DNA of 64,000 nucleotides from Felis catus (Eukaryota). The notes under the pieces were generated by a model. That model saw only the letters and a list, made by a program, of their open reading frames with translations. It did not search any database and was not told the DNA's origin. Where the stretch lies: assembly GCF_018350175.1 (NCBI RefSeq), contig NC_058368.1:101496001-101560000 (forward strand). Direction: 5' to 3'. This document shows positions 33,855 through 57,479 of the stretch, piece after piece. The translations under genes were made by a program, and so were the position numbers. Positions within the stretch are counted from its first letter, which is position 1; each line of letters begins with the position of its first letter.

Positions 33855-34400
33855 TAATTCTGTTTTGATGAGAGAATATGCTCTATAATATTTTAGTTAT
33901 ATGACACTTAAATTATGGTACTGCATATGATCTTTCTTGGTGAATGTTTAAAGGAAATAATATTCTGCAGTTTTTGGATGTTGTATTTTGTAAATAGTAC
34001 AGGGTCATTGATGGTAATATTTTGATCTACTCTATCAGTATACATCCTAATATTTTTGTCTTCTGCTTCATCATTTACTGAAACTACATTGTTAACATTT
34101 TCAACTATCATTGTCTTTTCCCTTTAGTTTTTTTAGTTTTTGTTTTGTTAATTTTAGTTTAATTTGCTCATACATATTTATGACTTTTATGTCAATTTAA
34201 TATTTTTGTATTATGAAATGGACTTCTACGTCTTTGGAGATATTCTTTTGTTTTGATATTTACTTTGTATGATAATATATAGCCTCTCAAGCTTTCTTAT
34301 CCTTGCTGTTTGCATAGTATATCTTTCTCCTTTTACTTTCAGTTTCTTTGTGTCTTTGTATTTGAAGTTGTTTTTAGAGATGCATATAGTTGGCTGTTGC

Positions 34401-34616
34401 TTTTTTTTTTTTTTCAACGTTTATTTATTTTTGGGACAGAGAGAGACAGCATGAACGGGCAAGGGGCAGAGAGAGAGAGGGAGTCACAGAATCGGAAACA
34501 GGCTCCAGGCTCTGAGCCATCAACCCAGAGCCCGACGCGGGGCTCGAACTCACGGACCGCGAGATCGTGACCTGGCTGAAGTCGGACGTTTAACCGACTG
34601 CGCCACCCACGCGCCC
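34401..34616 (-). mobile_element. Young SINEC_Fc-type SINE
   Basis: CpG-intact body; TSD ggctgttgctttttt. Confidence 0.96.
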
Positions 34617-34799
34617 GGCTGTTGCTTTTTTATATTGTCTGACTATTTTTGACTTTTGAGAAAATGGTCCATTTTCATTTTATGTATATTTTTAAGTCTA
34701 GTGTCTTGCTGTTAATTTCTCCTCTATCTTGTTTCTCTTTTGTTTTAATGAAATGTTGTTTACTGTTTTTATATTTTGTCTTAGCTTTTTGGCTATTCC

Positions 34800-35067
34800 T
34801 ATTGTAATTTATTTTTATATGTGGTCTAAGTGTTAGAATACATATATATATGTTATATGTATATGTGTTCTTTATACATATATATATATATATATATATG
34901 TAGCTACTTAATATTGAACCACATTATTCCTCACTAATATTGTAATTTATTTTTATATGTGGTCTAAGTGTTAAAATACATATATATATGTTATATGTAT
35001 ATGTGTTCTTTATACATATATATATATATGTAGCTACTTAATATTGAACCACATTATTCTTCACCAA
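34800..35067. repeat. 138/130-bp tandem duplication
   Basis: Copies start at 34800 and 34938; differ by four TA units and three substitutions. Confidence 0.95.
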
Positions 35068-36802
35068 TATAACAATCTGAAAATAATGTAATTTCATATA
35101 CCATCCCCCTATGTGTGTTTCCATATATTTTACTTCCATTTTTGTTATAAATGACCCTGAGAAATTATCTGTGCTTCAAACAGTATTTTTTAAGGAAATG
35201 AATACCATGCATTTCTGATTTCTAGTGCTCTTGATACCTTTTGAAATTTCCACATTTCCTCAATTTGTAGGTTAATGTTTTTCATGGAACTTGGGACAGT
35301 TTCAACCATTATTTATTAAAATGTTTTTTTTTTTTTCTGCCCCATTTTTTTTTTTTAAATGTAATAGAACTTTAATGGCTATTTAGTAGTTTTGAAGACC
35401 TCTTTTCTAATTTCAGTATCAGTCATCTTGGAGTCTCATTCCTTTGACAGCTTGGTTTCCTGACTGTGCAGGAAATCTGTTTATTTGCATCTCTGGTAAT
35501 TTTTAACTGTGTGCTAGACATTTGATTTCAGCTTTGTTAAGAGTCCGGGTCTTTTGTCTCTTTAAGTTTGTTGAGTTTCTGGAATGGAGTTAATTTAATT
35601 GGATTATTCTTAATCCTATCTAGGCTTGGTTTTAGGCTTTAGTTGGGCCAGTCTAGCGTAGTTTTGATTCTAAGGTATGGACCTTACTCTTAAGACCTGG
35701 CCTTTGTGGTGGGTCAGCTCAGTTCCTGGGACATTACTGAGATTTCTCCATCATGACTACATAGGAACTTAAAGCTCTCCCAGCACTGTGCAGCCTTTAG
35801 TATGTCCATTATTCATTTAACCCCATAGTAGCCATGATCTACTAGATATTCCAGAATATTGCCACCCATATGTGTAGTCTAGTTTTTTGCCCTACCACTA
35901 CCTACCCCCCAGCTCTGTACCACTGCCTCACCTTGTTTACCATGTCCTGCAAATTTCACTTGCTTCAGCAGTGACTCTGATCTGTGATCGCTTTGTACTA
36001 TCTGTGTTTCACCTGTTCGTGCTGTAGTCACAAAATTATTTCTGGCTAGAGAGCTTGGGTAAAGGTGGGACTGACGTTATGCATTTCCTTTTTCTCAGAT
36101 ATCACAGACCACAGTGCCTATTATCCAGTGCCTGAAAAAGATGTTTCCTAAGTTTTATCCACTTTTACAGTTATTTACAGTAGGACATAGTTTCAGTATC
36201 AGTTATTCTATTATATTTGGAAACAGAGTAAACGGTATGTGTAGAACTTATTTGGTTTTACATATACCAAACAGAGGCTTACAGTTTTATCTGCAAACTG
36301 TCAGTATGGCAAATATAATAAGAAAATGTATAAACACATTGGCTGTTAGAACTAGTTGCATATTTGAGGGATTGTTGGAAATTGATCAGAAAATACTGTT
36401 TGTTTCAACTTCTGTTATGATTGCATTGTGTACTCAGTTTCAGAAATAGGAATTAGACATGATATTGATATTCCTCCTGGTTTTCTTATGTTTTGACGTC
36501 AAAGCTTCTTTAGTTGCAGAGTAGGAATCCACTCAAATTGGTAGGAGGATTGCTTACGCTTGCAGAATTGAGGCATGTTAGATGGGTGAAATTCCTAGGG
36601 GAGATGAATGGGGAAGCCTCCTCCAAAAACTTTTTTTTTTTTTGACCTTTACTGTTTTCATGTATATGTTAGAAAATTAGAAAACATATCACCCTTCTCT
36701 ACTTCATGAGGTTGATTCCTGCCAGTATTTCTTAATCTTGTGAAATTACATTTATATTTTAAAGTCTAGTTCATATGTTCCATAAGAATTAATTGTTTCC
36801 TG

Positions 36803-36915
36803 AGGGTGAGCAATTGCTCCTGCAGTGAGTGGACTTGTGACTCTTGATCTCAGGGTTGTGAGTTCGAGCACCAGTTTGGGTGTATAGATTACTTAAAAAT
36901 AAAATCTTAAAATAA
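36803..36915 (+). mobile_element. Short old-type carnivore tRNA-SINE lacking the CT tract
   Basis: gactcttgatctcagggttgtgagttcgagc B-box region, A-rich tail; TSD aattgtttcctg at 36791 and 36916. Confidence 0.8.
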
Positions 36916-37468
36916 AATTGTTTCCTGTGATGGGTGGCAAGAATATTCTTTGTAGTACCACTTCTGAAGTACATTTCTGTATATAGGCAATGGGTAATAA
37001 ATATTTGAAATAATGAAGATCAAATGAGAATGTATATTCAGAAAGACCTTGAGAATTATTGTGTATGGACACGTGGAAGGACATTTTAAGTAAAGTCTTT
37101 CACTAATTTGCAAAATGTATTCTCTTTTTCTGCTTTTAAATGGAAAATCTTATATTGCCTTGCTGGTAAGAATTGAAATGATTTTAAGTTGGGAGGTCTT
37201 AAGTTAGTGAATGTATTATATTAGCTTATGAAATAGTACATTTTTATTACATTTTTAATTTTTAATACTTTTTCTTTGGTTTTGTGATCTCTTTGGTATT
37301 AAAGTATAGGACAGATAGTAATGGCCACTTTAAGTCTACTGTGGTTTGATTTAAGTGGGAATCCATAAATTGCAATAATCCATTGCCTAAACTTAATGTT
37401 ATTAATTTCCCCAGAACACATTCTTTTACTTCTCTAAGTTGACCAATTTTCCTTTCTTAATATTTTAG

Positions 37469-37718
37469 CTCTCTATGAATATCAGCTTACATCGTTGAAA
37501 GGATAATTTGGAAGACATGTTTTGCTGAAAGGACAACTGAGAAAAATTTTACGAATGGGATGAACACGCGCCAGTTAACAGACTACCTACTGCAATTTGA
37601 ATGTTAACAATTACCCACCTGGTACAGTTAACCTAGTGATGTACCTATTCTCACAATACCCTATTTCAGTGTGCTTGTCTTGATTAAAGAATTCAAAGTG
37701 GAGTACCGCAAACTTGAT
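37469..37718 (+). other. CSNK1G3: CSNK1G3 exon 2, 5'UTR part (250 nt)
   Basis: Pyrimidine tract and acceptor ttttcctttcttaatattttAG (AG 37467-37468); continuous with the coding start; resembles the human exon 2 leader as I recall it. Confidence 0.85.
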
Positions 37719-37896
37719 ATGGATAATAAAAAGAAAGACAAGGACAAATCAGATGATAGAATGGCACGACCTAGTGGTCGGTCGGGACACAATACTCGAG
37801 GAACTGGGTCTTCATCTTCTGGAGTTTTAATGGTTGGACCTAACTTTAGAGTTGGAAAAAAAATTGGATGTGGCAATTTTGGAGAATTACGATTAG
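37719..37896 (+). CDS. CSNK1G3: Casein kinase I gamma-3, exon 2 coding part (178 nt)
   Basis: [59 protein letters not shown](G): CK1-gamma3 N-terminus and Gly-rich loop; Kozak gatATGG; donor TAG|GTAAGA, phase 1. Confidence 0.98.
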
Positions 37897-39243
37897 GTAA
37901 GACTATTTTGTTTATTCCATTATGTTTGAAGCGTTTTTTTTTTAAAGCTAAAAGTACTTTCTAATGAAAATGGTTTAGTTACTGTTTAGTTGTTTACCTG
38001 TGGTAATTTTAAAGAACATAAATATTGGAAATTTCTTATGTACTTGTATTTTTGTTTGTAAGGAATTCCCTACTATAAGAATGTGTATTTACTTGAGATC
38101 ACCCATCTGGAATATGAGTAAAAAGAAAATAAATTTCAAGCCCCGACAAGCTGATAAAAAACACCCCATAAGGTGCCATTTGCTGTGTATTTTTAAGAAT
38201 GATGTTTAGGCTACTTTTTCAGATTTGAAAACATTTAGCTAACTGATCACTTCAGGAGGATATGTATGGCTTAAAGTCAAGGTAATGTACTGAAACTGCC
38301 AAAAAAACCCAAAACAGTGAAATTTACATACATCCAGAGTGGCACGCAGAAATCTATGTTCTTAATAAGGCACACAAGGTGCTGATTCAGTTTATTTTTT
38401 CTAATCAGGCAGGTTTGGTAAACATTGGTCTAATTAAATCTCCTAACTCTACATTAAAGGCAATTGAAACTCGGTGAGGGAAAGTTATCTGCCAGATGTT
38501 ACACAGCAATTTAATGACATAGTTGGGACTAAAATCTAGGTTTTTAACTCCTGCAACAGTAGAGATGTGGCTTTCTTGAGTGAAGAGAAATAAGAAGAGG
38601 GTAGTATGGTTATATGGGCGTCAATATTGAGGTACCCTGAGGCTGTGGTCAGTGGACCACTGAGAATGCAAACCTGAGAAGGAAAGAGGAAAAACTTGGC
38701 TTCACAATTTTCCTTAGATGCAATCCCACTTAGAAGAAATAAATCCAATTGTGTGTTTATCTATTCGATTAGTTCTCTTCATCTTGTAAAACACCTGAAT
38801 TTGTAGGTCACCCTTCATTTTAATACTACTTTGTGTTGTTAAGGCACATTAAATCTTTGAATGAAGCAAGCCAGTAAAAGCCAATGACATACTTTGTAAA
38901 TAGCTGTGATTGACATGTTTGGCAGACTCTTGCATTTTAGTAGGGACTCAAATGTTTGGAAGGGTGAATGTTTCACAGTTTACTTTTTAGGAGATTGAGC
39001 TAGATATTTTAAAATTCTTGACTGTTTCTGATTTTGGAATTAGAAAATCTAGGTTATTTACTTACTAACTCTGAGCTCCATTTATCTGTCTATTCAAAGC
39101 GTGTTGCCTGTCCATCATGTATGAAGCATGACTAGGCACTGATAATACTGGAAAAATATAAAAATTGTTCTTGCTATTATGGAAAACATAAGTTATTTAA
39201 CCACTTGAGGCCTCAAATTCCTCAACTTGAAAATGGAATTCTT

Positions 39244-39537
39244 CCTGCTTGGGATTCTCTCCTCCTCTCTGTGCCCACCCCCCCAAACATAAATAAATAA
39301 ACTTAAACAAAAAGGGGCACCTGTGTGGCTTAGTCACTGAAGCATGCCACTGTTGATTTCTGCTTATGTCATGATCTCATGGTTTGTAAGATCGAGCTTG
39401 CATCCGACTTTATACTGATAGCAAGGAGCCTGCTTGGGATTCTCAGTCTCTCTCTCCCTCTCTCTGTGCCCCTCCCCCACTCGAGCATGCACATACATGT
39501 ACTCTCTCTCTCTCAAAAATAAATAAACTTAAAAAAA
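39244..39537 (+). mobile_element. SINE dimer: 5'-truncated copy (39244-39313) plus full copy (39314-39537), inside a MIR
   Basis: Flanked by aaaatggaatt at 39230 and 39534; MIR-like cctcaaattcctca.c.tgaaaatgg on the left and gttgattgtgaagat on the right. Confidence 0.85.
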
Positions 39538-40524
39538 TGGAATTACTGCTCCTTCTTAGTTGATTGTGAAGATAAAATTCAGACGATCATGTAAAAGGAC
39601 CCATCAGTATACCTGCACATTTTAGGAAAGCATTGACCTGCATGCTTAAAAGATATTAAAATACTTGTTCTGTTTTAAAATAAAAAATATGGCCTACTGT
39701 AGTGTATTTATTTATATATATGAAGTAGTTTTACAGGTGCACATTATTTTATATGTATGTGTGTACCCTATCTCTCTTTGTGGATCTGACTGTTATTACT
39801 ATAGTGCTTTGGCCATTTTTATTTAGAAGTGGTTACATATAATTTATTTTGAAATAAATACGTATATGTTTATGAACACATCTGTGTGTATGTATGCACG
39901 TCTGTGTGTGTATAAACACACAGAACAATTCTAGCTGGCCCTTTTAACTGGGGTAATATGAGAAACGATGTGTACCTTATATTGAAACTATATATGCTGC
40001 ATACAGTGAAAAAGCAGTAAAATACCCCTTTGTGGTGTGTGAATAATTGGAAACAGGAATAAGATGATTTATTAGTCTGTCCATCCATCCATCCATTTGT
40101 CATCTACTTATCTATCTGAATCTCTGTATCTGTCTAGGGTTATTTGTTGTATATTTGTATAAATTGATTTATTTAAATGTGATCTCTATACTCTATTTTT
40201 GTGTTTTATGCATATTTATAAAATAGATAATACCTATACTTAGCTAATTTATTAATTTTATTCCTTCTTACTGACAGGATACTAAATAAAGTGGCATTTT
40301 ACTCCCTTTTTAAAGGCCCCAAATAATTTCTTCCTATAAAAACAGTTGTTGAAACATGGTTTGTATACCTGGATAAACATGCTGATGTTGAAACCTGGTT
40401 TGGATTCTTAAAGTGCTTGCTTTAAAACTACATTAAAGACACATCTTGTGTATTTGATTCCTGGCACTAAAATTTTTGTGATTAGTGTTGGGTGAGAAAG
40501 AATATAAGGTATATGTGTTATAGA

Positions 40525-40975
40525 TAAGGAATTTTCAACACAGATGCTGTTGGCATTTTGGGCTAGGCAGTTCTTTTTACAGAGAGAACTGTTCCAGATA
40601 TTCATGTTGTTTACAACTTCCGACTTCTTCAACACTAAATAAAAGTTGTAACTCCATGCACAACCCCAAATGCCTTCCCCCAGCCATTTAAAAAAAAATT
40701 TTTTTAAACATTTACTTATTTTTGAAACAGAGAGAGACAGAGCATGAACGGGGGAGGGTCAGAGAGAGGGAGACACAGAATCTGAAACAGGCTCCAGGCT
40801 CTGAGCTGTCAGCACAGAGCCCGACACGGGGCTTGAACTCACGGACTGTGAGATCATGACCTGAGCCGAAAGTCGGCCGCTTAACCGACTGAGCCACCCA
40901 GGCGCGCGCCCCCCCCCCCCCCAGCCATTTTAAATGCCCCAGGAGGAGACAGTATTAAGCACTGTTGAAACTACT
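40525..40975. mobile_element. MER20-like hAT MITE split by an antisense SINE (40690-40910)
   Basis: gttggcattttgggctaggcagttcttt..aaatgcccc.ggagg; SINE TSD cccccagccattt. Confidence 0.65.
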
Positions 40976-41250
40976 CATACAAGTAATGATTTAAAAAAAA
41001 AAAGTGGCATAAAACTTTGACCTTGAGATTTAAAAAAAAATAGGTAAACCTTGCAAATCATCTAAAATCAAATTTAAGTAATTGAGAGCACATTTTTATT
41101 CGTAAGTGAAATGTTCACTGTGTTTTTGTTTTATTTTATCTTTATATGTATGGTGGTAAGGCTTGCATTCTGTGCGTTTTTGATCTGTTTCTAGCTTAGA
41201 CAATCATCAAAAACCCTTAGAAAGTTTCTTTTTAAAAAATTTTTTAAGGC

Positions 41251-41464
41251 TTTTTTTTTTTTTTTTTTGAGAGAGAGAGAGAGAGAAAGAGAGAGCGAGC
41301 GAGCAGGGGAGGGGCAGAGAGAGAGGGAGACACAGAATCCGAAGCAGGCTCCAGGCTCTGAGCTGTCAGCAAAGAGCCCGAAGCGAGGCTCAAACCCACG
41401 AACCGTGAGACCATGACCTGAGCCGAAGTTGGATGCTCAACTGACTGAGCCACCCAGGTGCCCC
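41251..41464 (-). mobile_element. SINEC_Fc-type SINE
   Basis: Poly(T), GA tract, full body. Confidence 0.94.
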
Positions 41465-41489
41465 TGGAAATGTTTTTGATAGGTACTGA

Positions 41490-42047
41490 ATGAGAACAAA
41501 CATAGCTAGCTAAAATATAGTGTTTTATTGTATTTATTTGTTTTTTTGTGTGTATTATATTTTGACCTCTTAAAAAAAAAATCTTTCTGACTGGAGAGAG
41601 ACTACTCCCACTGGGGCTAGCCAATTCTTAGAGGCAGCAAAGGATTCAGCTGGGAGCATGCCTCTGATCTGCAGAGTAACCAATCTGGAGCCATACCTCC
41701 TTTGCCTGGCCTGTATATTCCAGCAGGCTGGCTTCTACTTCATTAATCATCCCATGATGAGGTACAAGACAACAAGACACCCCTCCTATAGCCCAAAGAC
41801 CACCAGAATTACTCAAACTACTTAATCCTAAACTGTTTGCCCTGCCTTGCCTTGGCTTTCTGTAGAAACTCCAGTAAAGGCTTTGGCCTGAGCTTCTCCT
41901 CCCTTGTTTCTGTCTTCCACCACTTGACCAAAACAGGATCCTTCTCCTCTAGGACCTGTGAGCATAATAAACTCTGTTTTCCTGAGCCTCTGCTATGTCC
42001 CCTCTTGAAGTTGCAACTGACTGACTGTCACCTAAAAGAACACAAAA
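41490..42047 (+). mobile_element. ERV-type solo LTR (family uncertain)
   Basis: ggggctagccaattc, second CCAAT, tata-like cctatag, aataaactct poly(A) signal; LTR-like organisation. Confidence 0.6.
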
Positions 42048-42344
42048 AAGGGTGCTATAAACTGCTGGATGAGATACTATGTGTATGTGAAATAAGTGGC
42101 TGTAGTTTTTGACATCATTAGGTATATGACAGGAGTTTCAATAACTTTTCTTATTTTTGTCTTCTTTTTTATATAGTTCACAGTTCTTGTTGGTTTTTAT
42201 TTAAGAGTTGTTTTGAAAATTTTGCAGGCCCTACATTCTATATCAAATATGCAGATTTGAGTGCATTCATCATTTTTTTATGCTTACTGATTTTTTACTG
42301 TTACTAACTGTAGTGTATTATAAAACTTAATTGAAAAATGTACT

Positions 42345-43165
42345 AATCAGTAACAGACGGTGATACTCTAAGAGATCCTAGAATATAGGGTGTTAAGCAA
42401 AATAGGTTTTTTTGCTTTTGGTTTTTGTTTCACGTAACACCAGAGGAAGAGCCCTTGGGGCTTTTTTTTTTTTTTTTTTTTTTTTTAATGGTAGCACTAG
42501 GGTTTATTAAGCTGCACCTTAGTACAGGCATTGGGGCTTGCCCATGGTGCTCTTGAGGTATAAAGCTGGACAATCTGCCAATTCTTCTTGAGCAATGACA
42601 CCAGGAAATTGACAGTTAAGTGGATGTTGTGTACAAGCTCATCATCTGTCATGTTCACGTGGCCAACGGCCACTGCCAGACAAAGCAACTTCATCTGGAA
42701 TTGGATCATGGACTTCACCTCATCCACTTCGGCCACCATGTTCTCACTCTGGGTCAGCAAGGAAGGAAACTTGCCAGCCTTATTCAGGCCAGGGCCCAGG
42801 CTTTGTGGAGTCTGCTTGATCAGAGATTTGGAAGCCGAAACGGCATCATGGCGGTCAGGGGGCCTCTGCGCCCTCAGTATATGGACTCAGTCTCTGTGTG
42901 CAAGGTGATTGCTTCTGTCTTTGTCATCTGCCAGCCAGCCAGCTAGCAAGAGGAAGAAGAAGGATCAGAATGTCAAAAACACTCATTTTTGGAAGTGAGG
43001 AGTGACAGACCTGTGTCCCCTCATACCCAGAACTTAATTACATCGCTGAAAGAGAGGCTGGAAATGTAATCTCTAGCTGGACAGCCATTTTAAAATGGAC
43101 TGGTTCTATTATTATAGAATGGAGGGCATGGATATTGGTGGGTAACTAATAGTTCCTGCTATAAA
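42345..43165. mobile_element. Old MaLR LTR (MLT1K/L-like) split by the RPL10A retrocopy
   Basis: Left part taacag..gtgttaagcaaaatagg..tcacgtaaca; right part cagaactta.ttacat..gaggctggaaatgta.tct.tagctgg..atggatattgg..aactaatagt. Confidence 0.6.
42462..42850 (-). pseudogene. RPL10A: 5'-truncated processed pseudogene of ribosomal protein L10a (uL1)
   Basis: Minus strand reads ..[95 protein letters not shown]; intronless; one codon lost and a 1-nt frameshift near the C-terminus; AATAAA (42503-42508) and a 25-nt poly(A) (T-run 42462-42486). Confidence 0.95.
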
Positions 43166-45682
43166 CAGATACGTAGTTTTTGTAGAACAGGGTTTTCCAT
43201 GATAATTACCACCCAAATACTCAAAATTGGTAAAACCATCATTTCAAGTTCAGTAGAGCAGAAAGCTCTCCTGGAAATGACCTTTGAAATTGGATTAAAA
43301 CATCAGTTAATTGGAACCACTTTGCTTGGCGCCTTGTTGTAACTGGATTCCCCTTATACATACATTCCCTCCCTGTCACACATGTAATACACACAAACAC
43401 ATACCTACACGCAGGTCATTTGTTCATGCCCGAAACAACAAACACTGATTAAAAGCCAAGTGTGTGAGCCTATGCCTATGTTAGGTTATGGGGATGTAAC
43501 AAAAATGTATTGTTTCACCATTGTTCATGTCTAAAAATATAATCCTCGAAGTTCAACAAAATCTGTAATGTTCAAAAAAAGAATCATGCTTTAAGGTTTA
43601 AGTGCTTTGTACCATGACCTAAAAGACATTTGAGTGTAAATGCCAATAAAAGCAGTACTTCTAGATGAATTGGTATATTTTGGTTCTGTGGAATCTATAT
43701 ATAACTTAACTTCTTGTCCTGTGAATAATTTTCCCTGTGTACCTGTGACTAAACATCATATAGTTAGGAAAAGATAATAATGTCTTGAGGAAATACAAAT
43801 TCTGTCTTTGAACTCAAAATGGAATTATTCCTTTGTGAGACACAGTTCCTCAAGATAAAGTTCCTCACCATATCATTAAATTGTTCACTCTCTGCCTACT
43901 AGTGGATGCCTGAAATTTCATGTATAGTGTATTCTTGAAAGTATACATGAAGGCACATCTAAATGTTGAACTACTTGACTAAAAACGTGATAGGTTTCTG
44001 GTATGATTGGTTTCATATTTACGGGATCGGCAATTTATATTCATGAGCTATTTAATATATAGGTTATGTATATTTAAATAATACCTACAAATATATATAA
44101 TATAATAAATATATTTATAACTTATAATACATTTTTATATATACAATATATACAAATATATTTGTATTTGTAATATATTTATATTGCTAAACGTTCACCA
44201 CATTTGGCACTCCTGTTGAGTTCCATCTCTGTGCCAACTGTCACGGGTTATGAGACCTATCTATTAAGTGTTAGTACGAATGCTTGTTTTTTTTTAATCT
44301 CTCTTTTCTCCTCATTCATTTTTATAAAATAGGGACGAGATTCAAGAAAGGAGTACGGTATTTGGATGAACAGACACTACTGTATAATGGTGGTGACCTA
44401 TCAAGAGACTGAAATTTTGCCTAGAAGTTTTACTGCCGTTCATTAGCTGCTGTAGAAAAGGAAGTTAGGGCTATTATGGTAGAAAATCCCATGTGTCAAA
44501 GTTGCTCATTCTGTGTTCAGCCAGTGTGACCAGGGCCAGTTACTGTCACAGTTAAAAAAAACAAAGCAAAAACACTTAACGTTTTTCTGTTTTTCTCATT
44601 ATAAAAATAATGAATGCCTATTGAAAAAATACTGGAAATTCAGAAATCACATGCTATTTTTGTTCTTTTTCCTGTGCTTGTGAAGAAACACTTTAATTTA
44701 GGTATTAGATTGTCTTTGTATACTTATTGCTTCTAAATTTTTCTGTACTACTTCACTTGGGCTACAGATGCTGACTGACCCAATGGAATTTTCTAGATTA
44801 TTTTCCATTGGCAATGCCAAAGATTACTGTAATTCATTTGAATTCTTTACATGTTATAGATACTGAGTCTTTATTTTGGTTTGTCAGTTACCTGTTCTTT
44901 GTATATGGTAAATGTTTTTCAATATACAGATAGAGACGTTTAATATATTTTATGGTTTCCAGTCTGTATAAAATCTTTTTACCTTTTCCCACCTTTTAAA
45001 ATGCCCATAAAGACTTTCATATATTGGGTGGTAAGCATTTTTTCTTGTTTTATGGTTTATATCTAAGTTTTTAAATGTTCAGCATTTAATATGGGTATAA
45101 GGTAGGGTGCTAATAAACCCATTTCCCCCTCAAAATCATTAGCTAGTTTGTCAGAGCCAATTATTAAATAATATGTTTCTTACTTTATTTCATTTTTAAT
45201 ATATTCAGGAGTTTCCTGTGTGTATAATGTATTTACTAGATGACATATGAGCTCTAATGAGATTACTTACCATAATAATGAAGGATTTAAAATGAGGCAG
45301 TGATTGGGAAAGGAATTTTGTATTCCTGTTTTCATATAGGAGTTCTGGTTTTTAAATGTATTTTCAGCATGTGTTTGACTATTGATTTACTTTCTGAGTT
45401 GTGTGCAATAATATTGCATCAAAATAAGAATCTTCTTATTTTTGTAAGTGGGCTACCTTATTTAAGTATCACTTTCTACTCTGAATCCAGGTGAAATGCT
45501 AATTATGTCCTTGGGTGGATCAATTTAAGATTTCCTTGTCATTGCTTCGATCTCTGGAGCAAAAACCTTTGCTTCATTTAAATGTATTAGTGCTTTTTTT
45601 TCACCCAGAGTAGAGTTTTACATAATGTACCTTTAAAAATCAATTATTGATACAATCTGATCTTTCTTCTTTCTTTTTCAAG

Positions 45683-45723
45683 GGAAAAATTTATATACAA
45701 ATGAATATGTGGCAATTAAACTG
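45683..45723 (+). CDS. CSNK1G3: Casein kinase I gamma-3, exon 3 (41 nt)
   Basis: Acceptor ttctttttcaAG; encodes (G)KNLYTNEYVAIKL with the catalytic VAIK lysine; donor CTG|GTAAGT; phase matches exon 2. Confidence 0.97.
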
Positions 45724-46132
45724 GTAAGTTTGTGTTTCTTTTTTTTTCCCTTAATTATTTTCCTGTTTTTCTTTGATGATTAGTTTACATTTTAATTACT
45801 TTTTTGGTTTCATATCATTTATAACTTGAGTGTTTATTGGGAAAATGATATGCATAACTGGTTTTTTGTGTGTGTGATTAAGCTCCTAGCATCCACATGC
45901 CTCTCAAGTATATGATAATGTGTGAATGTCTGTATTTTCCATGCCGTGAAAACTCAATCCCTTTACTTTGATATCATAGAATTTAATTTTTGAGTTTTGG
46001 CACAATTTGTAATTTCAAGAAACTGGCCCGTTGGCGTTTTTAATTAGAGAAAAACTAGAAAGCAAAATTTCTCTTAAAGATTCAAGTATTTGGACAAATG
46101 TGTCCTTAGTATTCTGGATTACCCACTTTCCT

Positions 46133-46304
46133 GGGGTGCCTGGGTGCTTCAGTCGGTTAAGCATCCAACTTGGGCTCAGGTCGTGAGTTCGAGCCCTGCA
46201 TTGGGCTCCCTGCTGAGAGAGAGGTCCCTCTCTGCTGAAGCAGGTCCCTTGTCCCCCTCTCCTGCTGCCTTTCCCCCCCCTCAAAAATAAACATAAAAAA
46301 AAAA
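46133..46304 (+). mobile_element. SINEC SINE with internal deletion
   Basis: ggggtgcctgggtg..cagtcggttaagcatcc head, B box gagttcgagccc, A tail. Confidence 0.88.
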
Positions 46305-47020
46305 TTGACAATGTCCTTCCAGGTAGCTTCCAGTATCTTTTTTTCCGTTGATATTTTGAATATGGTAAAAGTGGCTATTAGTTGACCTTCAGGGGTTCAG
46401 AAATTACTGATGTGTGAGGAAGCTAGCAGGGAAAACAAACTCCCATGCAACCACTCTCAAGTCCTCAGTGTGCCATCTCTGACAGCTGTAAGGCAGCTCT
46501 GTTCTGCAAGACTGGAGATCTGGGAACTTTTAGAAGACACAGCTTTGTTCAGGCACCACTTTTCTCTCCCGTCTTGCCAGCCAGGTTTCCCTGAGGCTAA
46601 GCCTGGCTTGGTTTTTCCAGTCTGCCGGCCATCGTCAATCTTGCCTCTGCCAAAATAACCACTGTTACTGGGGTAATGTGAGATTAATAAATCAGGAGAG
46701 AGAATTAGAAGAAGAGGCTATAGAGAGAAACAGAAAAACTTTGGGGATGAGGTAGAAAACCGTACTACTCAATGTGAAGTGTCTCAGGGAGTGTAGACCA
46801 AGTTTCACCGTAACGAGTGCTGTGTGTTTTCACTGGGAAGTAAAGATGCACAGTAGGTTGTTAGAGCCCCAGGAGAGACTGGCTGGCTGACTGACATATA
46901 GTTTGGGGCTGGCCTTGACCTAGATGAGTTCACCTTGGTTTAAGGTCTGGCCCTTGGTTTTATGATGGCAAATCTGGTTGGGTCTCTCTTCAGATTGTCC
47001 CTGTTAATTAAAGGTAGATG

Positions 47021-47083
47021 CACAGTAATCATTCAGTTCACACAGTAATCATTCAATTCCCCAGTAATCATTCAGTTCACACA
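47021..47083. repeat. 20-bp minisatellite, three copies
   Basis: cacagtaatcattcagttca / cacagtaatcattcaattcc / ccagtaatcattcagttca. Confidence 0.9.
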
Positions 47084-48799
47084 ATCAGTCAGGCTTTCAG
47101 AGATGTAAATACTTGGAAGCGTTAACTTCTAATTTCAAACGAGGTATCTTGCCATTAATGTCCACAATGCCCAACTCAGTATAAACGATATGTTTGCTTT
47201 CTGTAGGCTGATCTACGGAGAAAGCAACTTAAAATTACAGGGTTCCCTTCCGAGCATGAAATCAGAACAAGGGGAGTTAGTCTGTATGAATCAGAATAGG
47301 GAGGCCCAGGATGCAGGGGCTGGACGGTGTTTGAAAGAGCATTGCTGACTTTCATTTCTTTGGAATTCTTCCTTTTTCCATGTTCTAGGCCACCGGTCTA
47401 GGACCTAGACAATGTGTGGTGTTGAGAGTGGGGGTGGCCCGCAAGGATAGGAATGTAGCAACGCCCAGATAACTGCTGCAGCAGCCTGTGGTGAGCCGCT
47501 CCGCTCCCTGGGGCCTGTGAACGATGCTCCCTGATGCCCTGAGACACGGAAACCATTGTGTCAAAGCAGGAGCCACTGCTCTAGACTGTCCTTTCCTGGT
47601 CTGTTTCAGTCACTAATTGGTGACCCGTGGGTCCTGTTCTATTCAGATTTGGGGCTTGTTGACGCTGTTGGCACCATTGGGGCCTTAGTAAACAATCAGT
47701 CTGTCATCTTCCAGCCTTCTTATGTATACACGCGTGTGTACAACTCTCTTTAGTTTATCTTCGTGCTGTGTCACTCTCCCCTCGTTTCTTTCCTCCTTCC
47801 TTTTTTTGTGGACAGTCATTCTCTGGTGTGATGTGCCCCCTTTTAAAGCACAGTGATCAGCACTACATATAATAATAGTGTTTTTTTGTAAAACTGGCAA
47901 TTTTGGGGGCTCTTTTTTTTTTTGTATTTTGAGGTTGAAGTATGCTACACAGCGTCGTCTTCACCTCCACTTGATCCAAAAATCTTTTTGGTAGAACAGA
48001 AAACGTTTCACATGAACGACTGGACCATAGTTTGGTACTTACTTCGTTAAATATTTATGTATATAAAATATGTATGAAATATCCTTCTATGTTTTATTTG
48101 TATATATTGTATCTTTAAAACAGATCCCAGTTTTCTTCAGAAGCTGCTTTAAAAGTAATCACTTGAAAATGTTAAGTTTGGATGCTTTCAATGCTATCTG
48201 ATTTCTCTAGTTAGGTAGAAATAGGGGCATTTTGATAACGGTGGTGTTGAGAGAGCATATTTCACTGATGACTTCAGCTCTGCTATCTCTTAGAAAGATT
48301 TTTACGTTCATTTAATGTTATGCTAGTTCAGATGGATAGTTTGTTTCAGGGTAAGTTGTTAATTTGACCTCACCTGGCACCCTTGTATGTTGTTATTTGC
48401 ACTTCCATAATAACCTGTTGCTAATGAATCATGAAAATGTCAACGTGTGATGAGGTGACTTTTGTTATATGGTGGTATAATAAAATTTTACTGCTGGTTA
48501 AGTACTGGAATCAAGCTGAACTGACTCACCTAAATTAGATCTGAGTTTCTGTTTTTACCAAGGGAGTTTGAGTGATTGAATAAGTTATGGTGTTTAATTT
48601 CATTGGTGATTGCATACGTGGTCATCTTTCTTTACATCTTATAGTTACATACTTCTGTATAGTTAACTGAAGAATTTATAGTTATGATAGCACTCACTTT
48701 GTGGAGGGCACTGTTTTCAGTCATGTATATAAATGTGTATACATATATATATATAAAATAGGAATAAATATATGCATATATGTATAATGAAAAAAGATA

Positions 48800-48940
48800 A
48801 AGTTTTATTCCTCTTTTATAGAGGAGGAAACTGAAAAGCACAATAAGGTTGGTAATTGGCCAAAGTCTACTCAGCTAGTAACTAGTGGATTCAGGATTCT
48901 GACTCCGGACGCTTTAGTTTTAGTGTCTGTGCTTTTTCGT
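48800..48940 (-). mobile_element. MIR
   Basis: ttttatagaggaggaaactga..ggtaattggccaaagtc.actcagctagtaa. Confidence 0.8.
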
Positions 48941-49283
48941 GTCTGTCCTGCCTCTCAACAGCTAAGCTGTTGGTTTTCTCTTACGACAGTCTTTAGGACT
49001 ATACTTTTTCCTCTGGGATTTTAATCATTCCTGGTCTGAAGTGTTTGTCATGGGTCATAGTTTTCATGACGCTATATTTTGAGATAGCCTTGTTTTTAGT
49101 TATTCTGTTTGGGATCTATATTCCTCCTGAATCTGTGGTTTGTTGTGTTTCATCAGTTCTTGCAGATTCACAGCAATTGTTTCTTCACTTAACTGCCTCT
49201 GCTCCCTTGTCTCTCTTCTTTCCTCCTGAGACTCTTATCAAATGTCTGTTAGACCTTTTCATTGTATTGTCCAGATCTCTCAT

Positions 49284-49285
<2 letters not shown>

Positions 49286-49326
<41 letters not shown>
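49286..49326. repeat. (GT)n microsatellite
   Basis: About 20 GT units. Confidence 0.95.
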
Positions 49327-49328
<2 letters not shown>

Positions 49329-49689
49329 TTTCCATTTTTCTTCTTTCATATTGCATTCCATATGATTTACATAGATGCATTCTACATCATGTTTTAGTTC
49401 TGTAGATGTTTTTCCGTGTATCTTCGAGTTTCCTACTTCTCTCTTCTGTTGTATTAATCTGCTGGCAGACTGAGTTTATTATTTCGGTTATGGAAGCTTT
49501 AAAAATATTTTTGAGATTCTGTTGATTTTCTTCAAATCTTGTTACTTTGTTATACTTTTCTATTGGGTCTGGTACAGATTTCCTGTTACTCTGGTTTGTA
49601 GTGTCCTGCAGATGTTTTCATACCTTTATTATTTATTTCTTATGTCTAAAATTTCTGTTGCTTCTGCTTACGTTGTTTCTCTGTGTGTG

Positions 49690-49955
49690 AAGTCTCAAAA
49701 ACATTATGTTGACTGAAAAAAACCAGACACATATAAAACATAATGTCATTTATATCAAATGCAACAACAGACAAAACTCATCCAAAGGTGACAGAAGTCC
49801 AAAAGTGATTACGTCTGAGGGAGGGATGATGGGAATGTTCTAGAGGTTTTTTGAGGTGGTGGTTGCAGGAGTATGTATAGTTAACTAAGCTCGCGGACCT
49901 AATGCTCACAAATGGTGTGTTTTGTTATAAGCTATACCGTAGCTAAAAGAATTTA
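49690..49955 (+). mobile_element. L1MC/ME 3' end fragment
   Basis: aacattatgttga.tgaaaaaa.ccagacac..catttatat.aaat..acagacaaaact..tgatgggaatgttcta. Confidence 0.7.
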
Positions 49956-50405
49956 AAAATATATTATCGCTCCTGTGGAAAGTTTGATATTTTCACCCTT
50001 GTTCTTTCTTACTTGTCTATAGTTCCCTTTAACCCTAGAAGCATTACGTGAGAAATATACAGTTCAGAGGTGAATTCCCGGGAACAGGAGAAAGAGTAAG
50101 GGCTACCGTTTCCCTAGTCGTGAATGTTCAGAGTCTATTTTCCTTTAGGGTCAAAGAGTCAAACATAGATTTCCTTACTGCCTCATCTAATAGCCACTTA
50201 ACCTTATGTACATGTATGGCATCAATTGATTTTAATTGAATGCAAAGTTCATTTTTATTTGGTTCTTACTTTAGAAAAAGCTGCCTAGTAGGATGTTCAA
50301 GTATGTAAGAGTTGGTACCAAGATTTGGAACATTTCGAATAGAGACTTAGTGATCTTTTAGTAACTTAAATATTTTTTTGTTATTTTTGTTGATTTTTTA
50401 ATTAG

Positions 50406-50475
50406 GAGCCCATGAAATCCAGAGCACCACAGCTACATTTGGAATACAGATTCTACAAGCAGCTAGGATCTGGAG
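50406..50475 (+). CDS. CSNK1G3: Casein kinase I gamma-3, exon 4 (70 nt); gene continues beyond the window
   Basis: Acceptor tttttaattAG; encodes EPMKSRAPQLHLEYRFYKQLGSG; donor GAG|GTAAAG; phase-0 join to exon 3. Confidence 0.97.
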
Positions 50476-50791
50476 GTAAAGTCTTACATTAATTTTTAAA
50501 TTTGTAATAAAATGAGTTGTCATGATTAATAACTCTTTGGTTTCAAAGAATAGTATTTTAAATTTGGTGAAAATGAATCACTTCTTAAGGCTATGCTTAC
50601 GAGACACTTCCTTACTAGACTGTTAATGTTCTCTTGTTATTTTACTTACGACATTTTTGGAGCTGACTGTGTTGGTGCTAATATGAATAGAGAACATTGT
50701 GAAAAAAATTTAATTTGAGAATACAAGCTGCGTATAGCTAATATCCTTAGCCTTTTTGGTGACATCACACTTATTAAAATGGCTTAGCACA

Positions 50792-51248
50792 TAGTGGTAG
50801 GCTGAAAAATGGTCCCAGAGAAGAGATCCATATCATAATCTTTGGAACCTGTAAGTTCACCTGTGCAGGAATGATGAAGTTAAGGATCTTGTGATGGGTA
50901 GATTATTCTGGATTATCTCCATGGCCCTGAACACAGTCATAAATGTCCTTGTGAACAAGAGGCAGAGGGACATTTTACATACATAGAAGAGGAAAAGGCT
51001 AAGTGGCTACAGAGGCAGAGATTAGAGTGATAGAGCCAGAAGCAGGGAACGCTGGCAGGCACGAAAACCTGGAACAGCCTTCTGGGATTCTCCCTTGAAC
51101 CTCCAGCGGGGATGCGCCCCTGCTAACACCTGGATTCAACCTGGCGAGACTGATTTCGGATTTCTGGCCTCCAGATCTGTGACCAAATAAATTGCTCTTT
51201 TAAGCCACAAGCATGCAATAATTATGTTGGCTGTAGGAAATTAATACA
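50792..51248 (+). mobile_element. MaLR solo LTR (MLT1C/D-like)
   Basis: gtggtaggctgaaaaatgg start; gattattctggattatc; gaggcagagattagagtgat; tttctggcctccaga.ctgtga; ends taatacA. Confidence 0.88.
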
Positions 51249-51784
51249 GGTGTATTTTTATAGAAAGTCTAAAAGTAGTGAGAATGGATTATTTTTTGCT
51301 GTTGGAAAAAAGTAATGAGAAATTTTCCTATAGTATGTTGCATTTCCTTTATGGAGAAGCTTCTCACAGCTATACTTTCTCTGTTCACATCTATTCTGCT
51401 AACTATAATGATTCTTGTATGTGTGGTTTCTTACCAGGTAGGGATATTTTGTTGCCCTGGATTTAGTAGAATGTGGTTTTTTTTCCCCATGTGTCTTTCT
51501 GTATGCACGTGTTTACATTTTAGTTGATAGAGTTGAGCACTTCTTAACACATTATTCATGTTGCACATTCTTTTTTTCTAAGAGCATACTTTTCAAATGA
51601 GTAGTCATTATGGGGACGATGGAGTTGACATTTTGTATTAATGTTTTTATCACTATTGGCTTCTTGTAATGCATTTTTAAGTCTGATACAAATAGTCCTC
51701 CAGGAGTTATCAAAATTTTCACTGATGACTGAGGGATTTAAAGAATAGGAAGATAAAACTAATTCTAAGTGAAGCTGTACATAT

Positions 51785-52290
51785 TAGTTAAGACTAGCAA
51801 GTGTGATAGAAAGCCCTAAGAAGTGAAGTGGGGGGGAAAAAAAAGGCTTTATTGGCTCATATCTTGGAAATTCAGGGAAGGGACCAATACATTAAGACAT
51901 TATTGTGTCCAGGATTTCAAATACTTTGATCAGGGACATTCGTGAGTTTGTGCCTTTTTGTGTGTGTGGAAGCTTCATTTTCTGCTTGGCCCTTTCTATG
52001 AGATAGCAGAAGTGATTACCATTAGCCTAACTTAGCAATTATAATAGCATTCCTTTCCTAAGAATTCTAGCAGAAGATTTAGGACTGAATCTGTCTTATT
52101 TTGTGTCCTGTGCCTTTCCTCATTCTAATCACTATGAATTTGATTTCCCAGACTTAGATCTTACGCTCATTTCAGGAGCTACCTGAAACTCAGGGACTGA
52201 GAATGGGGTGAGGTGGTTGCCGAATGCAAAGCTGAGGTGTTAATCAGAAGGAAGATTGGATGCTGGGCCAATAAAGACAACAGATCTATC
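51785..52290. mobile_element. Old MaLR LTR (MLT1I/J-like)
   Basis: gcaagtg..agaaa.ccc..tttattggctcat and terminal tggatgctgggc motifs. Confidence 0.5.
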
Positions 52291-52947
52291 GTTATTTAAG
52301 TAGTAAAACTATCATTTGGAAAAATAGGATTGAACACTTTAATTAGGTTAGAATGAATAAGTCACTTGAGAGTGCAGGGAGTCATTGAATTGAATACCAA
52401 AGGTACCCTTTTATTATTATATTCTTTGCCCTTTTTACCTTTAGAAATTATGTCAGAGTAGTAATAAAAATGAAACCTATGTCTCTACCACTTGAATGCC
52501 AAAGGACTGCAGTGTTCCACAGTGAGCAGGGGCTACCATGTTCCGGACAGTCTGTATATATCAGGGTGTCCCCTGTGCTCCATGGCGTAGCATTTACATA
52601 GGTTGAAATCTGAGTGGTATTGCATGAAGCTGACAAATAGGAATATTCTTGAGCGATTTATGTGAATCATGTGAGTTTTGGTTCCTAGGTAGTATTTTAT
52701 CAGCCACGAATTTTAAAAACATCTTTGAGTACACATGTGAGCTCTGTAGAAAAAACAAAAGTTTAATTGTTTGGGGAGAGAACCATGATTTTAAAATAGT
52801 TTGATTTTGGAGTTGATACTTGATTATCTTTTTAGACTCTTCTTAATCAAAAATGAGCCATTCAAAGTAATTTAACTCCCTCATGGTATTTTATTTGAGT
52901 AGTAGCTTGCTTGTTAGTGTTCTCTTTAAAAATAGGTTATTAACTCA

Positions 52948-53829
52948 ATATCCAGACTGTTTAAAGAACTCCTAAAACTTGACCACAAGAATACAAACAA
53001 TCCAGTTCAAAAGTGGGCAAAGGGCTTGAGTAGACATTTCTCCAAAGATACACAGATGGCCAATAAACAGCTGAAAAGATGCTCAGTGTCACTAATCATT
53101 GGGGAAACGTAAATCAAAAGTACAAAGATAGACCACTCCACACCCATAGAATGGCTCTTATCAAACAAATGAGAAACAAACAAAGACCGGTAAACAAGTG
53201 TTGGTGTGAATGTGGAAACATGAAATCTTCATGCGTTGCCGGTGGGAATGTAAAATGGTACAGCTGCAGACGATATGGAAAATAGTATGACTGGTCCTCA
53301 AAAAAAATTAAGGATGGAATTCCCATCTGATGCAGTAATTCTCCTTCTTGTTATATATGCTAAAGATTGCATGCTAACAGAGATTTGTACCCCTACGTTC
53401 ATAGCATTATTCGCGATAGCCAAAGGGCGGAAACAGCCTAAGTGTCCATCACTGGATGAATGAAATGTGGTGTGTTTGGACACATGCTACGAGATAGATG
53501 AGCCTTGAGGACATTAGGCTAAACAAAGTAAGCTCGTCACAAAAGGACAGATACCGTATGACTTCGCGTATTTGAAGTACCTAGAGAGTCAGGTTCATAG
53601 AGACAGACAGCAGAATGGTGGTTGCCAGGGACTGAGGGATGGGGGAATGGGAAAATATTATTTAATGGGTATGGAGTTTCAGTATGAGGTGATGAGAAAG
53701 TTCTGGAGATGGACAGTGATGGTGGTTCCACAGTACTTGTGAATATTTACCTCACGGCCCTGAACCGTATACTTAAAAAATGGCTAAAAAGAACAAATTT
53801 TATATTATGTATGCCTTACCACAGTAAAA
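52948..53829 (+). mobile_element. L1MB-like 3' fragment (ORF2 end plus 3'UTR)
   Basis: aaaagtgggcaaagg.cttga.tagacatttctccaaaga; ggtgggaatgtaaaatggtacagc; aagtgtccatc; gttctggagatgga. Confidence 0.92.
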
Positions 53830-54184
53830 GCAGAAGTCAAAAGGTGGATTTACTCAGAATCACTTAGTGAGATGTGAAAACATCCATAACGTATCTAGTT
53901 CTGCCTGTCTGGATTTTGAGCCTCCGGTAAGTCTTTCTCTTTCTCTAGTTTCCCTCAAAACATCCCTCTTTTCTCTATTATTTGTTCACTGAATCTGTTC
54001 TGTACATACAGTGGGACTGTACCACTTGACTTCAGTGTGTACGGCTGACAGGTTACTACTCAGCTTTCCATGGGATTAGAATATTGTTTTATACCATTAT
54101 CACTTTCTGCGGTAGCGAAAATGTAATGTATCGAATAGCCTTATTTTTGTCACAGACGCTCAGCATTTATTGGGTAAAATGAGG

Positions 54185-54420
54185 GTTGAGATTTAGCAGT
54201 CATCAGCACGTAGGCGGTTTCTAAAGCCAAGGGAATGGATGAGGTCTCCCGCTTGGGTAGAGTGTCACGTGGGAAGAGGAACGGGGAGGAAACCATGCTG
54301 ACCCCTGCATTGGGCACGAATGAATTTGACAGTCGATAACAAAAATCATGACGACAGTAGTTTAAACAAGTCAGGGGATGTTCTGTGAGGGAAAATAAAC
54401 AAAGAGTTGGAGGTAGACGA
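54185..54420 (-). mobile_element. L2 fragment
   Basis: agtcatcagcacgtaggcggt..taaagcca.gggaatggatgaggtc. Confidence 0.65.
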
Positions 54421-54719
54421 TTCTGAGGTTGATACAGCTTCCCAAAAGTGAGGAATCTACTCTCGTTAGCTTCCTGCTCCTGTGTTTCGTATGTGGCTTT
54501 CATCCTTACGGTCCTGGAAGTTTTTGTAACAGGAGGGAGGGAGAAAAGGATGAAATTGCTTTCTAAATAAGGATAACTTCTAATTCTTTATCTCCTGCTT
54601 CCATTCTTAAAATCTACTCACACCTGTATATCCATAGTGGAATCAGATATTTTTTATACGTAGATTTTCAATCCCTCCCTTCTTTTCTCCTTTTCCAGTG
54701 ATTTTTCTCTCTTTCCAGA

Positions 54720-55260
54720 GAACTGTTTGCTCTTCTGGATTATCTAGTTCCGTTAGTGGCACACCCATTCCAATTGAGAATGTTAGTTGTCTTTGATTTA
54801 AGCCTTTTGAAACGATCACAGAATTCTGTCGTATCATTTAGTGTAAAGTCCGAACTTTTTTCTCTTTTCTACTAATCCACTTTTTGGTTGCACTGAACGT
54901 ACTCTTCCTTGAATAGATCTTATTATTTTCATCTGCCTGTATTCTCCTTTGTGGAATGTCTTTCTTTCTCAATGAATTCCTTCTTTCTTCAGGCCCTCGC
55001 TAAATGTCACCTCTTTTGCAATGCATTTTCTGACCTCGGTTTCTCTCCAGAAATGCTTATTTTTTGACCTGAAATTATTTTGAACGTATCTTTAGTTTTG
55101 TATCGTATTATGTGATGTGATTATTTGCTTGTGTCTGTCTCTTCCACTGACCTATGAACTCTTTGAGGGCAGTGAAATGCTGTATTTGCTTTTTTATCCT
55201 TGAAACTGAGCAAAATGCTTGACAATTGTAGGGCCTTGGTAAATGGTTGAAATGATAAAT
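54720..55260 (+). mobile_element. L2 3' fragment
   Basis: aaatgtcacctct..; tgtctcttccactgac.tatgaactctttgagggcag; ggtaaatggttgaaatga. Confidence 0.7.
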
Positions 55261-55362
55261 TCTTAAATGAGAAAGACTGTTTTTTCTCATAAGATGTGAA
55301 GTTATGATATGTGATGTCCAAAATTTCCTGTAGCTTTTTTAAACTTGTATGATTGATGTTGA

Positions 55363-55560
55363 GGGGCGCCTGGGTGGCGCAGTCGGTTAAGCGTCCGACT
55401 TCAGCCAGGTCACGATCTCACGGTCCGGGAGTTCGAGCCCCGCGTCGGGCTCTGGGCTGATGGCTCAGAGCCTGGAGCCTGTTTCCGATTCTGTGTCTCC
55501 CTCTCTCTCTGCCCCTCCCCCGTTCATGCTCTGTCTCTCTCTGTCCGAAAAATAAATAAA
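55363..55560 (+). mobile_element. Young SINEC_Fc-type SINE
   Basis: CpG-intact body; 22-bp TSD aaacttgtatgattgatgttga at 55341 and 55558. Confidence 0.96.
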
Positions 55561-57479
55561 CTTGTATGATTGATGTTGAAAGTTTGATATTCCAATATTA
55601 TAAAAGATTGTTATGTTATTAAATTTTGAGTTTCATTTCTGATATAGAAACATAGCCATACAGTTTCAAAAAAATTTTTTTAAGTTTATTTCATTTGAAT
55701 TTTTCTCTAATTAGGAATTTTAAGTCCTCATTTTAGGGATCTAGAAACAGAAGGAAAAAAAATCAATGATAAGTATTCTTTAAATGAATGGAAATGGTAA
55801 ACCAAGGAGATAAGCAGATCGTTATCTAATTAACTGAACTGTACCATTCAGCCATCTAAAAATAATCACTTTCCAGAGAAGCATAGGTTTTTAATCATTT
55901 GAATAATTTATTTTTTTATTTATTTGAGAAAAAGTTCAGTTGAATTGTTGATACTTTATGAGAATGCCTGGAGTATATTTTGAAATTGATGGAGAGATTT
56001 CCTTTGATGAACCGTGATTCTGAGTGTTGCTTCTTTATGTTATTTCCTTCCGTCAGTTGGTTTTAATGAGCTATGTTGGGGGAAACGTTGCAATTATTTG
56101 TTCCTCAGAATTTCTCTATTAACTGATACCTTTATAATGGTAAAATAACCTTATTTTGTCATAAACTGTTACTTCCCAAAAGAAGTAGAATAATCTTTTT
56201 TTCTGTTATAAATTACTGTTGTTGGCAACTCTGTAAGTATAGAGATGATATTAAATATACTATTTGAGACTATGCTTATGTTAAATCATCGTTTCTAAGT
56301 TAGTGTCTTGACTTTTGATGTGCCCTGAAGTGTGTAGTTCTAAACAGTAATTTGATAATGGCATCGGTGGCTGTTTCAAAATTATACCTCTTCATAATAC
56401 CGCCTTCTGAGAGCTGTTACTTTAAAAGGCTTGTTTTCCTGCCTTATACTGACCCCTGTGCCTTCTCTGTTTGTGCCTTGTTAAGTCAGGATTTAGATGT
56501 GCCCTCTGTGTTTTGCTCTGGTGTATAGATGCCTCCATTTGCACATCCTTTTCCAAACTATTTATAGGGTCTGTCTGCTAGCTAAAAGACTGTTGGTGAT
56601 TCCATAATGTATGGACATTTGATCATAGTACTTTTAAGAAAGGTTGTATTAGGGTCAAACCTTGAAACCTGGCTATATACATTGGTTAATATCTAAAATT
56701 CCTTTAATTCTTTAAAAGCCTGATTCTTAGAGTTTGTCTGTTTTCAAGAAATTTAAGAAATTTTCTTCTTTCTGTGTAATCTCGTGTCTGAGAAAACAAA
56801 GAGAACATTGTAAAACACCATGGCAGTTAAGTGAATAAACTGATGAGAACATCGCCTGTTGTATTTTGGTATTAATGAAACTCATGAAGAACACTCTAGC
56901 GGTGGGTCAGTGGTTAGAGTAGACGTCATCTCAGCTCATGTAGGGGACAGTCGACGTAGCAGCTTCTGAGAGTTCCCTTCTCTGTCTCTGCTTGCTTGAT
57001 TTCAGAAGACATCTTAAGTGCACGTAATACTTCTGTTCCCTGTAGAGGCTTCTCTGTATGGGAATTTCTGTAAGTTACTCATTGCTGAACTTTTACCGAT
57101 TTGTACATGACTGCATATGTACATTGCTACTTTGCATAGAAGCGTACACAGTTTTTGTGTTAAAGTCATTATAGTTGATGGAGAAGGTCTGTTTGTAAAG
57201 AATGCTATGCATTATCAGTGTAAGAAAGAAGGGTTAACTGATAGTGGTTTCAGTTTGGTTTATCTGGTGCAGGTATTAGGGTGGTTGTATGGTGTGTGGT
57301 AATTAGAGCATTTTTAGTGATAAATTAAGCACATAAGAATTTTAAATAAATCCGTACCTTGGAATAGGGTAGGACTAAATGGTGATGGGTTTAATTTTCT
57401 ACGATACAGCCTCATTTTTAAATTTCTCTACGTAAGAGTAAAAGATTGAAAATGCAAAGCCATTAAAAACAATAGGATG

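Follow-up and report, generated by a model that had tools for sequence, protein, structure and literature searches.

Exons 2 to 4 of the kinase gene CSNK1G3 form a circular RNA (circRNA) in human, and in a stretch of Felis catus DNA (assembly GCF_018350175.1, contig NC_058368.1, positions 101,496,001 to 101,560,000 of the forward strand) the same exons lie between two young, inverted short interspersed elements (SINEs), one at 34401–34616 and the other at 55363–55560. Positions are counted from the first nucleotide of this 64-kb stretch, below called the window, and elements are named by their start. The question raised by the locus is whether this pair holds a circle together in cats. Several variants can be distinguished: the pair could be the main scaffold, as a sequence-only reading of this DNA had proposed; it could be one of many redundant pairs; SINE pairing could be irrelevant to the circle; or the young SINEs could reduce or redirect its output. 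We hold with moderate confidence that redundant inverted SINE pairs in the long introns allow back-splicing, and that the young pair came about by chance and is a minor addition.

The window comprises the 5′ part of CSNK1G3. The translation of exon 4 is identical to human casein kinase I gamma-3 in all 23 residues and differs from gamma-1 at one of 22 aligned residues. Exon 2 (37469–37896, 428 nt, start codon at 37719), exon 3 (45683–45723, 41 nt) and exon 4 (50406–50475, 70 nt), all on the forward strand, sum up to 539 nt; exon 3 was picked among 18 open-frame candidates of the form AG–41 nt–GT because its translation resembles a kinase and its splice sites are clean. The signals at the ends of the predicted circle are canonical, with AG before the back-splice acceptor at 37469 and GT after the back-splice donor at 50475. 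Both flanking introns are long: intron 1 (6452–37468, forward strand) measures 31,017 nt, and intron 4 has at least 13.5 kb, judged by the absence of a later exon motif, as three motifs yielded no kinase exon 3′ of 50475 in the window, which fits a length of more than 13.5 kb. The exon sum and the intron lengths agree with the sequence-only reading.

The human circle, circCSNK1G3 (hsa_circ_0001522), consists of exons 2–4 (PMC8918408), and a mouse circCsnk1g3, selected for its conservation, is resistant to RNase R (PMC9700836). Hence the earlier statement that exons 2–4 circularise in human and mouse stands in full for human; for mouse it stands as to the existence of a circle, the exon content not being given in the available passages of that paper. 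A cattle CSNK1G3 circle was described in a report that has been retracted (PMC5680912), and a chicken paper was set aside as support, since it merely cites the human circle. By analogy with human and mouse, a 539-nt circle of exons 2–4 is very probably made in felids. The cat locus shares with these species the orthologous gene, a three-exon block with intact splice sites and long flanking introns; it differs in that the flanking repeats are CanSINEs and the circle is predicted. In the open-licence literature we found no paper on the repeats that drive the human or mouse circle, nor one on felid circRNAs or on back-splicing at CanSINEs.

The SINEs were listed with a BLAST search using the 55363 copy (41 rows, of which seven AG-microsatellite matches and one tail fragment were dropped). 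The window contains 33 CanSINE-like copies, 22 of them antisense; eight are young, that is, at least 93% similar to 55363. Intron 1 holds 22 copies (14 antisense and eight sense), and the visible part of intron 4 holds four, among which 55363 is both the only sense copy and the only young one. Between the two introns we observed 38 inverted SINE pairs, 20 of them with predicted duplexes of −250 kcal/mol or stronger. When 55363 is left out, 10 of the remaining 24 pairs still reach this strength, and when all young copies are left out, so do eight of 21, the best being formed by the older SINEs at 32422–32605 (sense) and 57520–57697 (antisense) with −318 kcal/mol. Thus, exons 2–4 are bracketed by older SINEs as well.

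Competition inside the introns is also considerable, with inverted pairs of −250 kcal/mol or stronger making up 57 of 112 in intron 1 and two of three in intron 4. The predicted 34401/55363 duplex (−399 kcal/mol) joins arms 20.7 kb apart, and for each arm the same intron offers a nearer, less stable inverted partner at a distance of about 2 kb: 55363 can pair with 57520 (83.5% similarity, −327 kcal/mol, 2 kb) and 34401 with 32422 (−291 kcal/mol, 1.8 kb). The older antisense SINE at 62048–62247 is a further competitor for 55363 (−306 kcal/mol) and an arm in older brackets. In intron 1, the young sense SINE at 24452–24649 pairs with 34401 over 9.7 kb (−386 kcal/mol) and could trap intron-1 antisense copies in general (−386 to −424 kcal/mol). 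The claim that 34401 and 55363 are the scaffold is not borne out, since they form one of 38 inverted pairs, 20 of them strong, and both arms have close competitors within their own introns.

The pair can also be compared with what chance would give. The two arms align at 93.5%, with nine mismatches and two gap openings over 199–200 columns, in line with the approximately 11 differences counted earlier by eye. Their description as near-identical is correct in this sense; the similarity itself reflects a shared subfamily only, as the pair ranks 21st of the 28 pairs among the eight young copies, and the arms have no non-consensus variant in common. Four intron-1 copies are closer to 55363 than 34401 is. 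They include the antisense SINEs at 9945–10142 (97.5%; the best partner of 55363, −439 kcal/mol, 45 kb apart), 18158–18355 (96.0%) and 26277–26474 (96.5%; it has the inverted 24452 copy 1.6 kb away). Hence the other young antisense copies that had been named as possible partners of 55363 are present and match it better. A further young antisense copy, at 23472–23670, carries IIA-type motifs and is 94% similar to 55363.

All null distributions were computed within this one window. Some young inverted bracket around exons 2–4 arises with a frequency of 0.67 when labels are permuted and 0.80 when elements are placed uniformly, and a 13-kb block slid along the window is bracketed in this way at 322 of 440 positions. 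For a bracket as tight as the observed one, the values are 0.14 under uniform placement and 90 of 440 block positions. The arm layout is thus mostly ordinary at the local SINE density, such elements being dense here.

Positions, orientations and distances of the two arms are as first described. The antisense 34401 arm is the nearest SINE upstream of exon 2, about 2.85 kb away, and the sense 55363 arm the nearest downstream of exon 4, at about 4.89 kb. Each is flanked by its own perfect target-site duplication, of 15 nt for 34401 (34392–34406 and 34617–34631) and 23 nt for 55363 (55340–55362 and 55557–55579), and hence the two inserted independently. CpG sites decay over time, so intact ones point to recent insertion. 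Compared with the consensus of seven copies from the window, 55363 has three substitutions, one of them at the 30 CpG bases, and 34401 has eight substitutions (one being a boundary base) plus four gap bases, with none at the 30 CpG bases. Intact CpGs and perfect duplications together point to a recent insertion of both arms. Gene conversion or co-evolution of the arms was rejected because of the missing common variant, and no compensatory changes between them were seen.

Some details of the arms may be mentioned here. The non-CpG changes of 34401, which include two 2-nt indels, could come from a different source copy, from copying errors or from assembly errors. The 55363 copy lacks a poly(A) tail and its 3′ end (55540–55579) directly adjoins the 23-nt duplication, which suggests priming within an A-rich end. 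Directly downstream of 34401, at 34800–35070, there is a tandem duplication of 138 nt with a 92% match. A 24-base flank of 55363 had no matches in metagenome contigs. The stretch from exon 3 to this SINE is contained in 20 of 24 rows of sequencing sets (nine studies), with 0.81–0.92 of its words found in 14 RNA or guessed-RNA contig sets and 0.99 in six large unlabelled sets; these shares are uninformative both on the presence of 55363, as its junctions make up an estimated 6 of 1074 sampled words, and on back-splicing.

The proposed mechanism would then be as follows. The introns on either side of the first coding exons of CSNK1G3 are AT-rich and very long, and SINEs accumulate in them. Within the pre-mRNA, inverted pairs of old and young copies, of which there are many, would draw introns 1 and 4 together; the exon-4 donor would thereby come close to the exon-2 acceptor, yielding the 539-nt circle as in human. 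The 34401 and 55363 copies would be two independent recent insertions that happen to form the innermost of the redundant pairs; they may shift the level of the circle somewhat, being neither required nor selected. SINE pairing as such would thus contribute to the circle, and the share of this one pair in it would be minor. The circles of human and mouse, which cannot have the cat insertions, count in favour of such a minor role.

Several observations weigh against this reading. The nearest SINEs on both sides of the exon block are both young and inverted, for which label permutation gives 0.022, a statistic chosen post hoc. Of the four SINEs that the window shows in intron 4, 55363 alone is sense, and no cross-intron duplex is stronger than those it forms (−399 to −439 kcal/mol; the best without it reaches −318). 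Moreover, circularisation of one minigene described in PMC4201285 was inhibited by a poly(A) tract, which 55363 does not have. The cross-intron pair counts are incomplete, intron 4 extending beyond the window. Finally, we infer every RNA-level step in felids.

The redundancy of pairs agrees with the published pattern. Gruhl et al. (2021; PMC8516420) studied circles shared among opossum, rodents and primates and found young species-specific repeats on their flanks, with many ways for these to co-pair; in their account there is no sign of selection on pairing, most circles are by-products, dimers around circles in five mammals are most often formed by the youngest elements, and a possible takeover by protein-driven control is considered. 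Convergent scaffolding of one circle by unrelated repeats, put forward for the cat locus, is accordingly already the main conclusion of that paper, though not for carnivores. Shared loci such as Akt3 (human, mouse, opossum) have long introns of low GC content in which transposons accumulate, and several lineage-specific repeats of young age that can co-pair across the circularised exons, with no sign of selection, all as in the cat gene; the difference is in the species, which are opossum, rodents and primates there and a carnivore here. Santos-Rodriguez et al. (PMC8516421) report an association of conserved circles with long introns downstream and propose a kinetic long-intron model. CSNK1G3 is absent from the examined text and supplements of both papers, whose larger files may list it. 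Near human circles, pairs of the youngest Alus are enriched 1.41-fold and older pairs 2.07-fold (PMC13019027), a difference that gives no support to a special role of the youngest pair.

Experimental evidence for such scaffolds comes from Liang and Wilusz (2014; PMC4201285), where deletions and compensatory mutations in short-intron minigenes showed that inverted Alu pairs are required for circZKSCAN1 and circEPHB4. In these minigenes, a pairing of 30–40 nt can suffice and duplex stability does not predict the yield; stronger or longer repeats sometimes inhibit, and one Alu can be necessary while its neighbour is dispensable. The cat locus likewise has inverted SINE arms in both introns, with complementarity far above 30–40 nt. 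It differs in distance, with 2.85 and 4.9 kb separating the arms from the splice sites and 20.7 kb lying between the arms themselves, in the local competitors of both, and in that the pairing is predicted. In splice sites, inverted repeats and long introns, it resembles known Alu-flanked circRNA loci, and we regard cat CSNK1G3 as a carnivore instance of the published pattern.

How far, then, can the alternatives explain the same layout? That the duplex of 34401 and 55363 is the main scaffold in the cat lineage, backed up by the remaining young antisense copies, appears unlikely to us. It is the innermost pair, its −399 kcal/mol duplex includes the only young downstream arm in view, and both the prevalence of the youngest dimers in five other mammals (PMC8516420) and the existence of individually necessary Alus (PMC4201285) would suit it. 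However, its arms are separated by 20.7 kb while an inverted partner of each is available within about 2 kb, stronger hairpins do not predict more circle (PMC4201285), older pairs bracket the same exons, and there is no sign of selection. The opposite extreme would be that SINE pairing is irrelevant: an ancestral circle would result from slow splicing of long introns together with proteins, the SINEs being absorbed by local partners. The strong within-intron pairs in both introns, the circularisation of the same gene in human and mouse (the retracted cattle report adding little) and the kinetic and protein-driven models already in print (PMC8516421, PMC8516420) are consistent with this view, which we nevertheless consider doubtful. 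Inverted repeats are a well-supported driver elsewhere (PMC4201285), a Quaking core motif is not enriched near the exons (one site in the upstream kilobase and none in the downstream one, at a window mean of 0.33 per kb), and a comparison of the introns showed no ancient non-SINE complementary segment longer than about 60 nt. Such ancient complementarity was tried as a scaffold and rejected, as it gave short matches only, the best being 29 nt at 90% (local score 46, where 100 shuffles reached 38 at most) and 62 nt at 68%.

The remaining possibility is that the young SINEs lower the output or redirect it, for instance to a circle of exon 2 alone or into edited and unwound duplexes, or that felids make little circle. 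The routes would be pairing of 55363 with 57520 or with intron-2 copies, and pairing of intron-1 sense with intron-2 antisense copies. Between introns 1 and 2, 12 of 30 pairs are at −250 kcal/mol or stronger (the best at −339), 55363 pairs with the 40711 copy of intron 2 at −356, and repeats that are stronger or longer are sometimes inhibitory (PMC4201285). Yet the documented human form comprises exons 2–4 (PMC8918408), and a circle of exons 3 and 4 would total just 111 nt; we consider a lowered or redirected output very improbable. The reading in which many redundant pairs share the task, with the young pair as a late and minor member, therefore remains the one that we prefer.

The identity of the elements bears on how widely the pair is expected to occur. 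The SINEs are carnivore tRNA-derived elements, and thus, as had been stated, they inserted independently of primate Alus and rodent B1/B2. According to Walters-Conte et al. (2014; PMC4084570), a T>G change in the A box is specific to subtype IIB (SINEC_Fc1); we found this G in both arms and in six of the 33 copies overall. A T indel at position 51 separates IIA from IIB in the same paper, and the T near this position is missing in both arms, in all six copies with the A-box G and in one other copy, the available passages not stating which subtype lacks it. The subfamily-II heptamer of that paper is one base off in both arms at its likely site, and exact at the likely site in two of the seven young copies. 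We call the arms IIB-like (SINEC_Fc1-like for 34401), given this one-base difference. As in feliform CanSINE subfamily II, subtype IIB, both arms combine low divergence with perfect target-site duplications. Each of the 49 IIB loci studied in PMC4084570 occurs in a single clade or species only, with an age estimated at less than approximately 5 million years. Thus, the arms are probably younger than the cat family, and their absence is expected in other felids. The label "felid-specific" was accordingly too wide: the pair is probably narrower than that, and not pan-felid.

Other SINEs of the window offer further structures. Two older antisense copies within the circle span, at 40711–40905 and 41288–41464, can pair with 55363 (−356 and −322 kcal/mol) or with intron-1 sense copies. 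Older inverted pairs of 32422–32605 with 40711–41464 (85–87%, −316 to −322 kcal/mol) enclose only exon 2, from which a circle of 428 nt might form. Clusters at 10903–11580, 19853–20274 and 23472–24910, in the second of which the sense 19853 copy adjoins the antisense 20078 copy, are possible local hairpins or editing sites. The segment at 52930–53830, which we take to be an old LINE-1 3′ fragment, has a short inverted match in intron 1 at 20819–20860. Two ARAGORN tRNA calls were discarded, both lying within SINE copies and not being tRNA genes, and Rfam gave no matches in 38000–64000.

In the predicted circle, the frame from the normal start codon would run through 37719–37896, 45683–45723 and 50406–50475 and on into 37469–37506, encoding 108 residues, namely 96 of the kinase N-terminus and 12 new ones past the junction; a mouse paper claims a circle peptide of 85 residues (PMC11805973), a different length. 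The human circle has been linked to miR-181b (PMC8918408). In cat exon 2, at 37598–37604, there is one weak 7-mer match to a miR-181 seed site. Upstream, a CpG island and the non-coding exon 1 occupy 5001–6451 on the forward strand (the start of the exon is unmapped; its donor GT is at 6452), with observed-to-expected CpG ratios of 0.67 and 0.94 in the bins beginning at 5001 and 6001 and the island extending over approximately 5–7 kb. The donors of exon 1 (6449–6457) and exon 4 (50473–50481) are identical from −3 to +6, and would be competitors for the exon-2 acceptor.

At present, the locus adds one predicted carnivore example to a published pattern, with a layout such as SINE density alone usually gives. 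Its value lies in testability. The correlations behind the model in which shared circRNAs are maintained by a turnover of young, lineage-specific repeats come from primates, rodents and opossum. As intron 4 shows one dominant young downstream arm, the presence or absence of 55363 across felids could test causality. The circle is an ancient one, for which published work reports links to miR-181b and interferon signalling; that 55363, an insertion probably less than 5 million years old that some cats may still lack, strongly increases its output is improbable. If it did, felid species or alleles with and without the insertion would constitute a natural knockout, a single insertion would be seen to retune a conserved circRNA, and the scaffold-turnover model would be tested in a third placental lineage.

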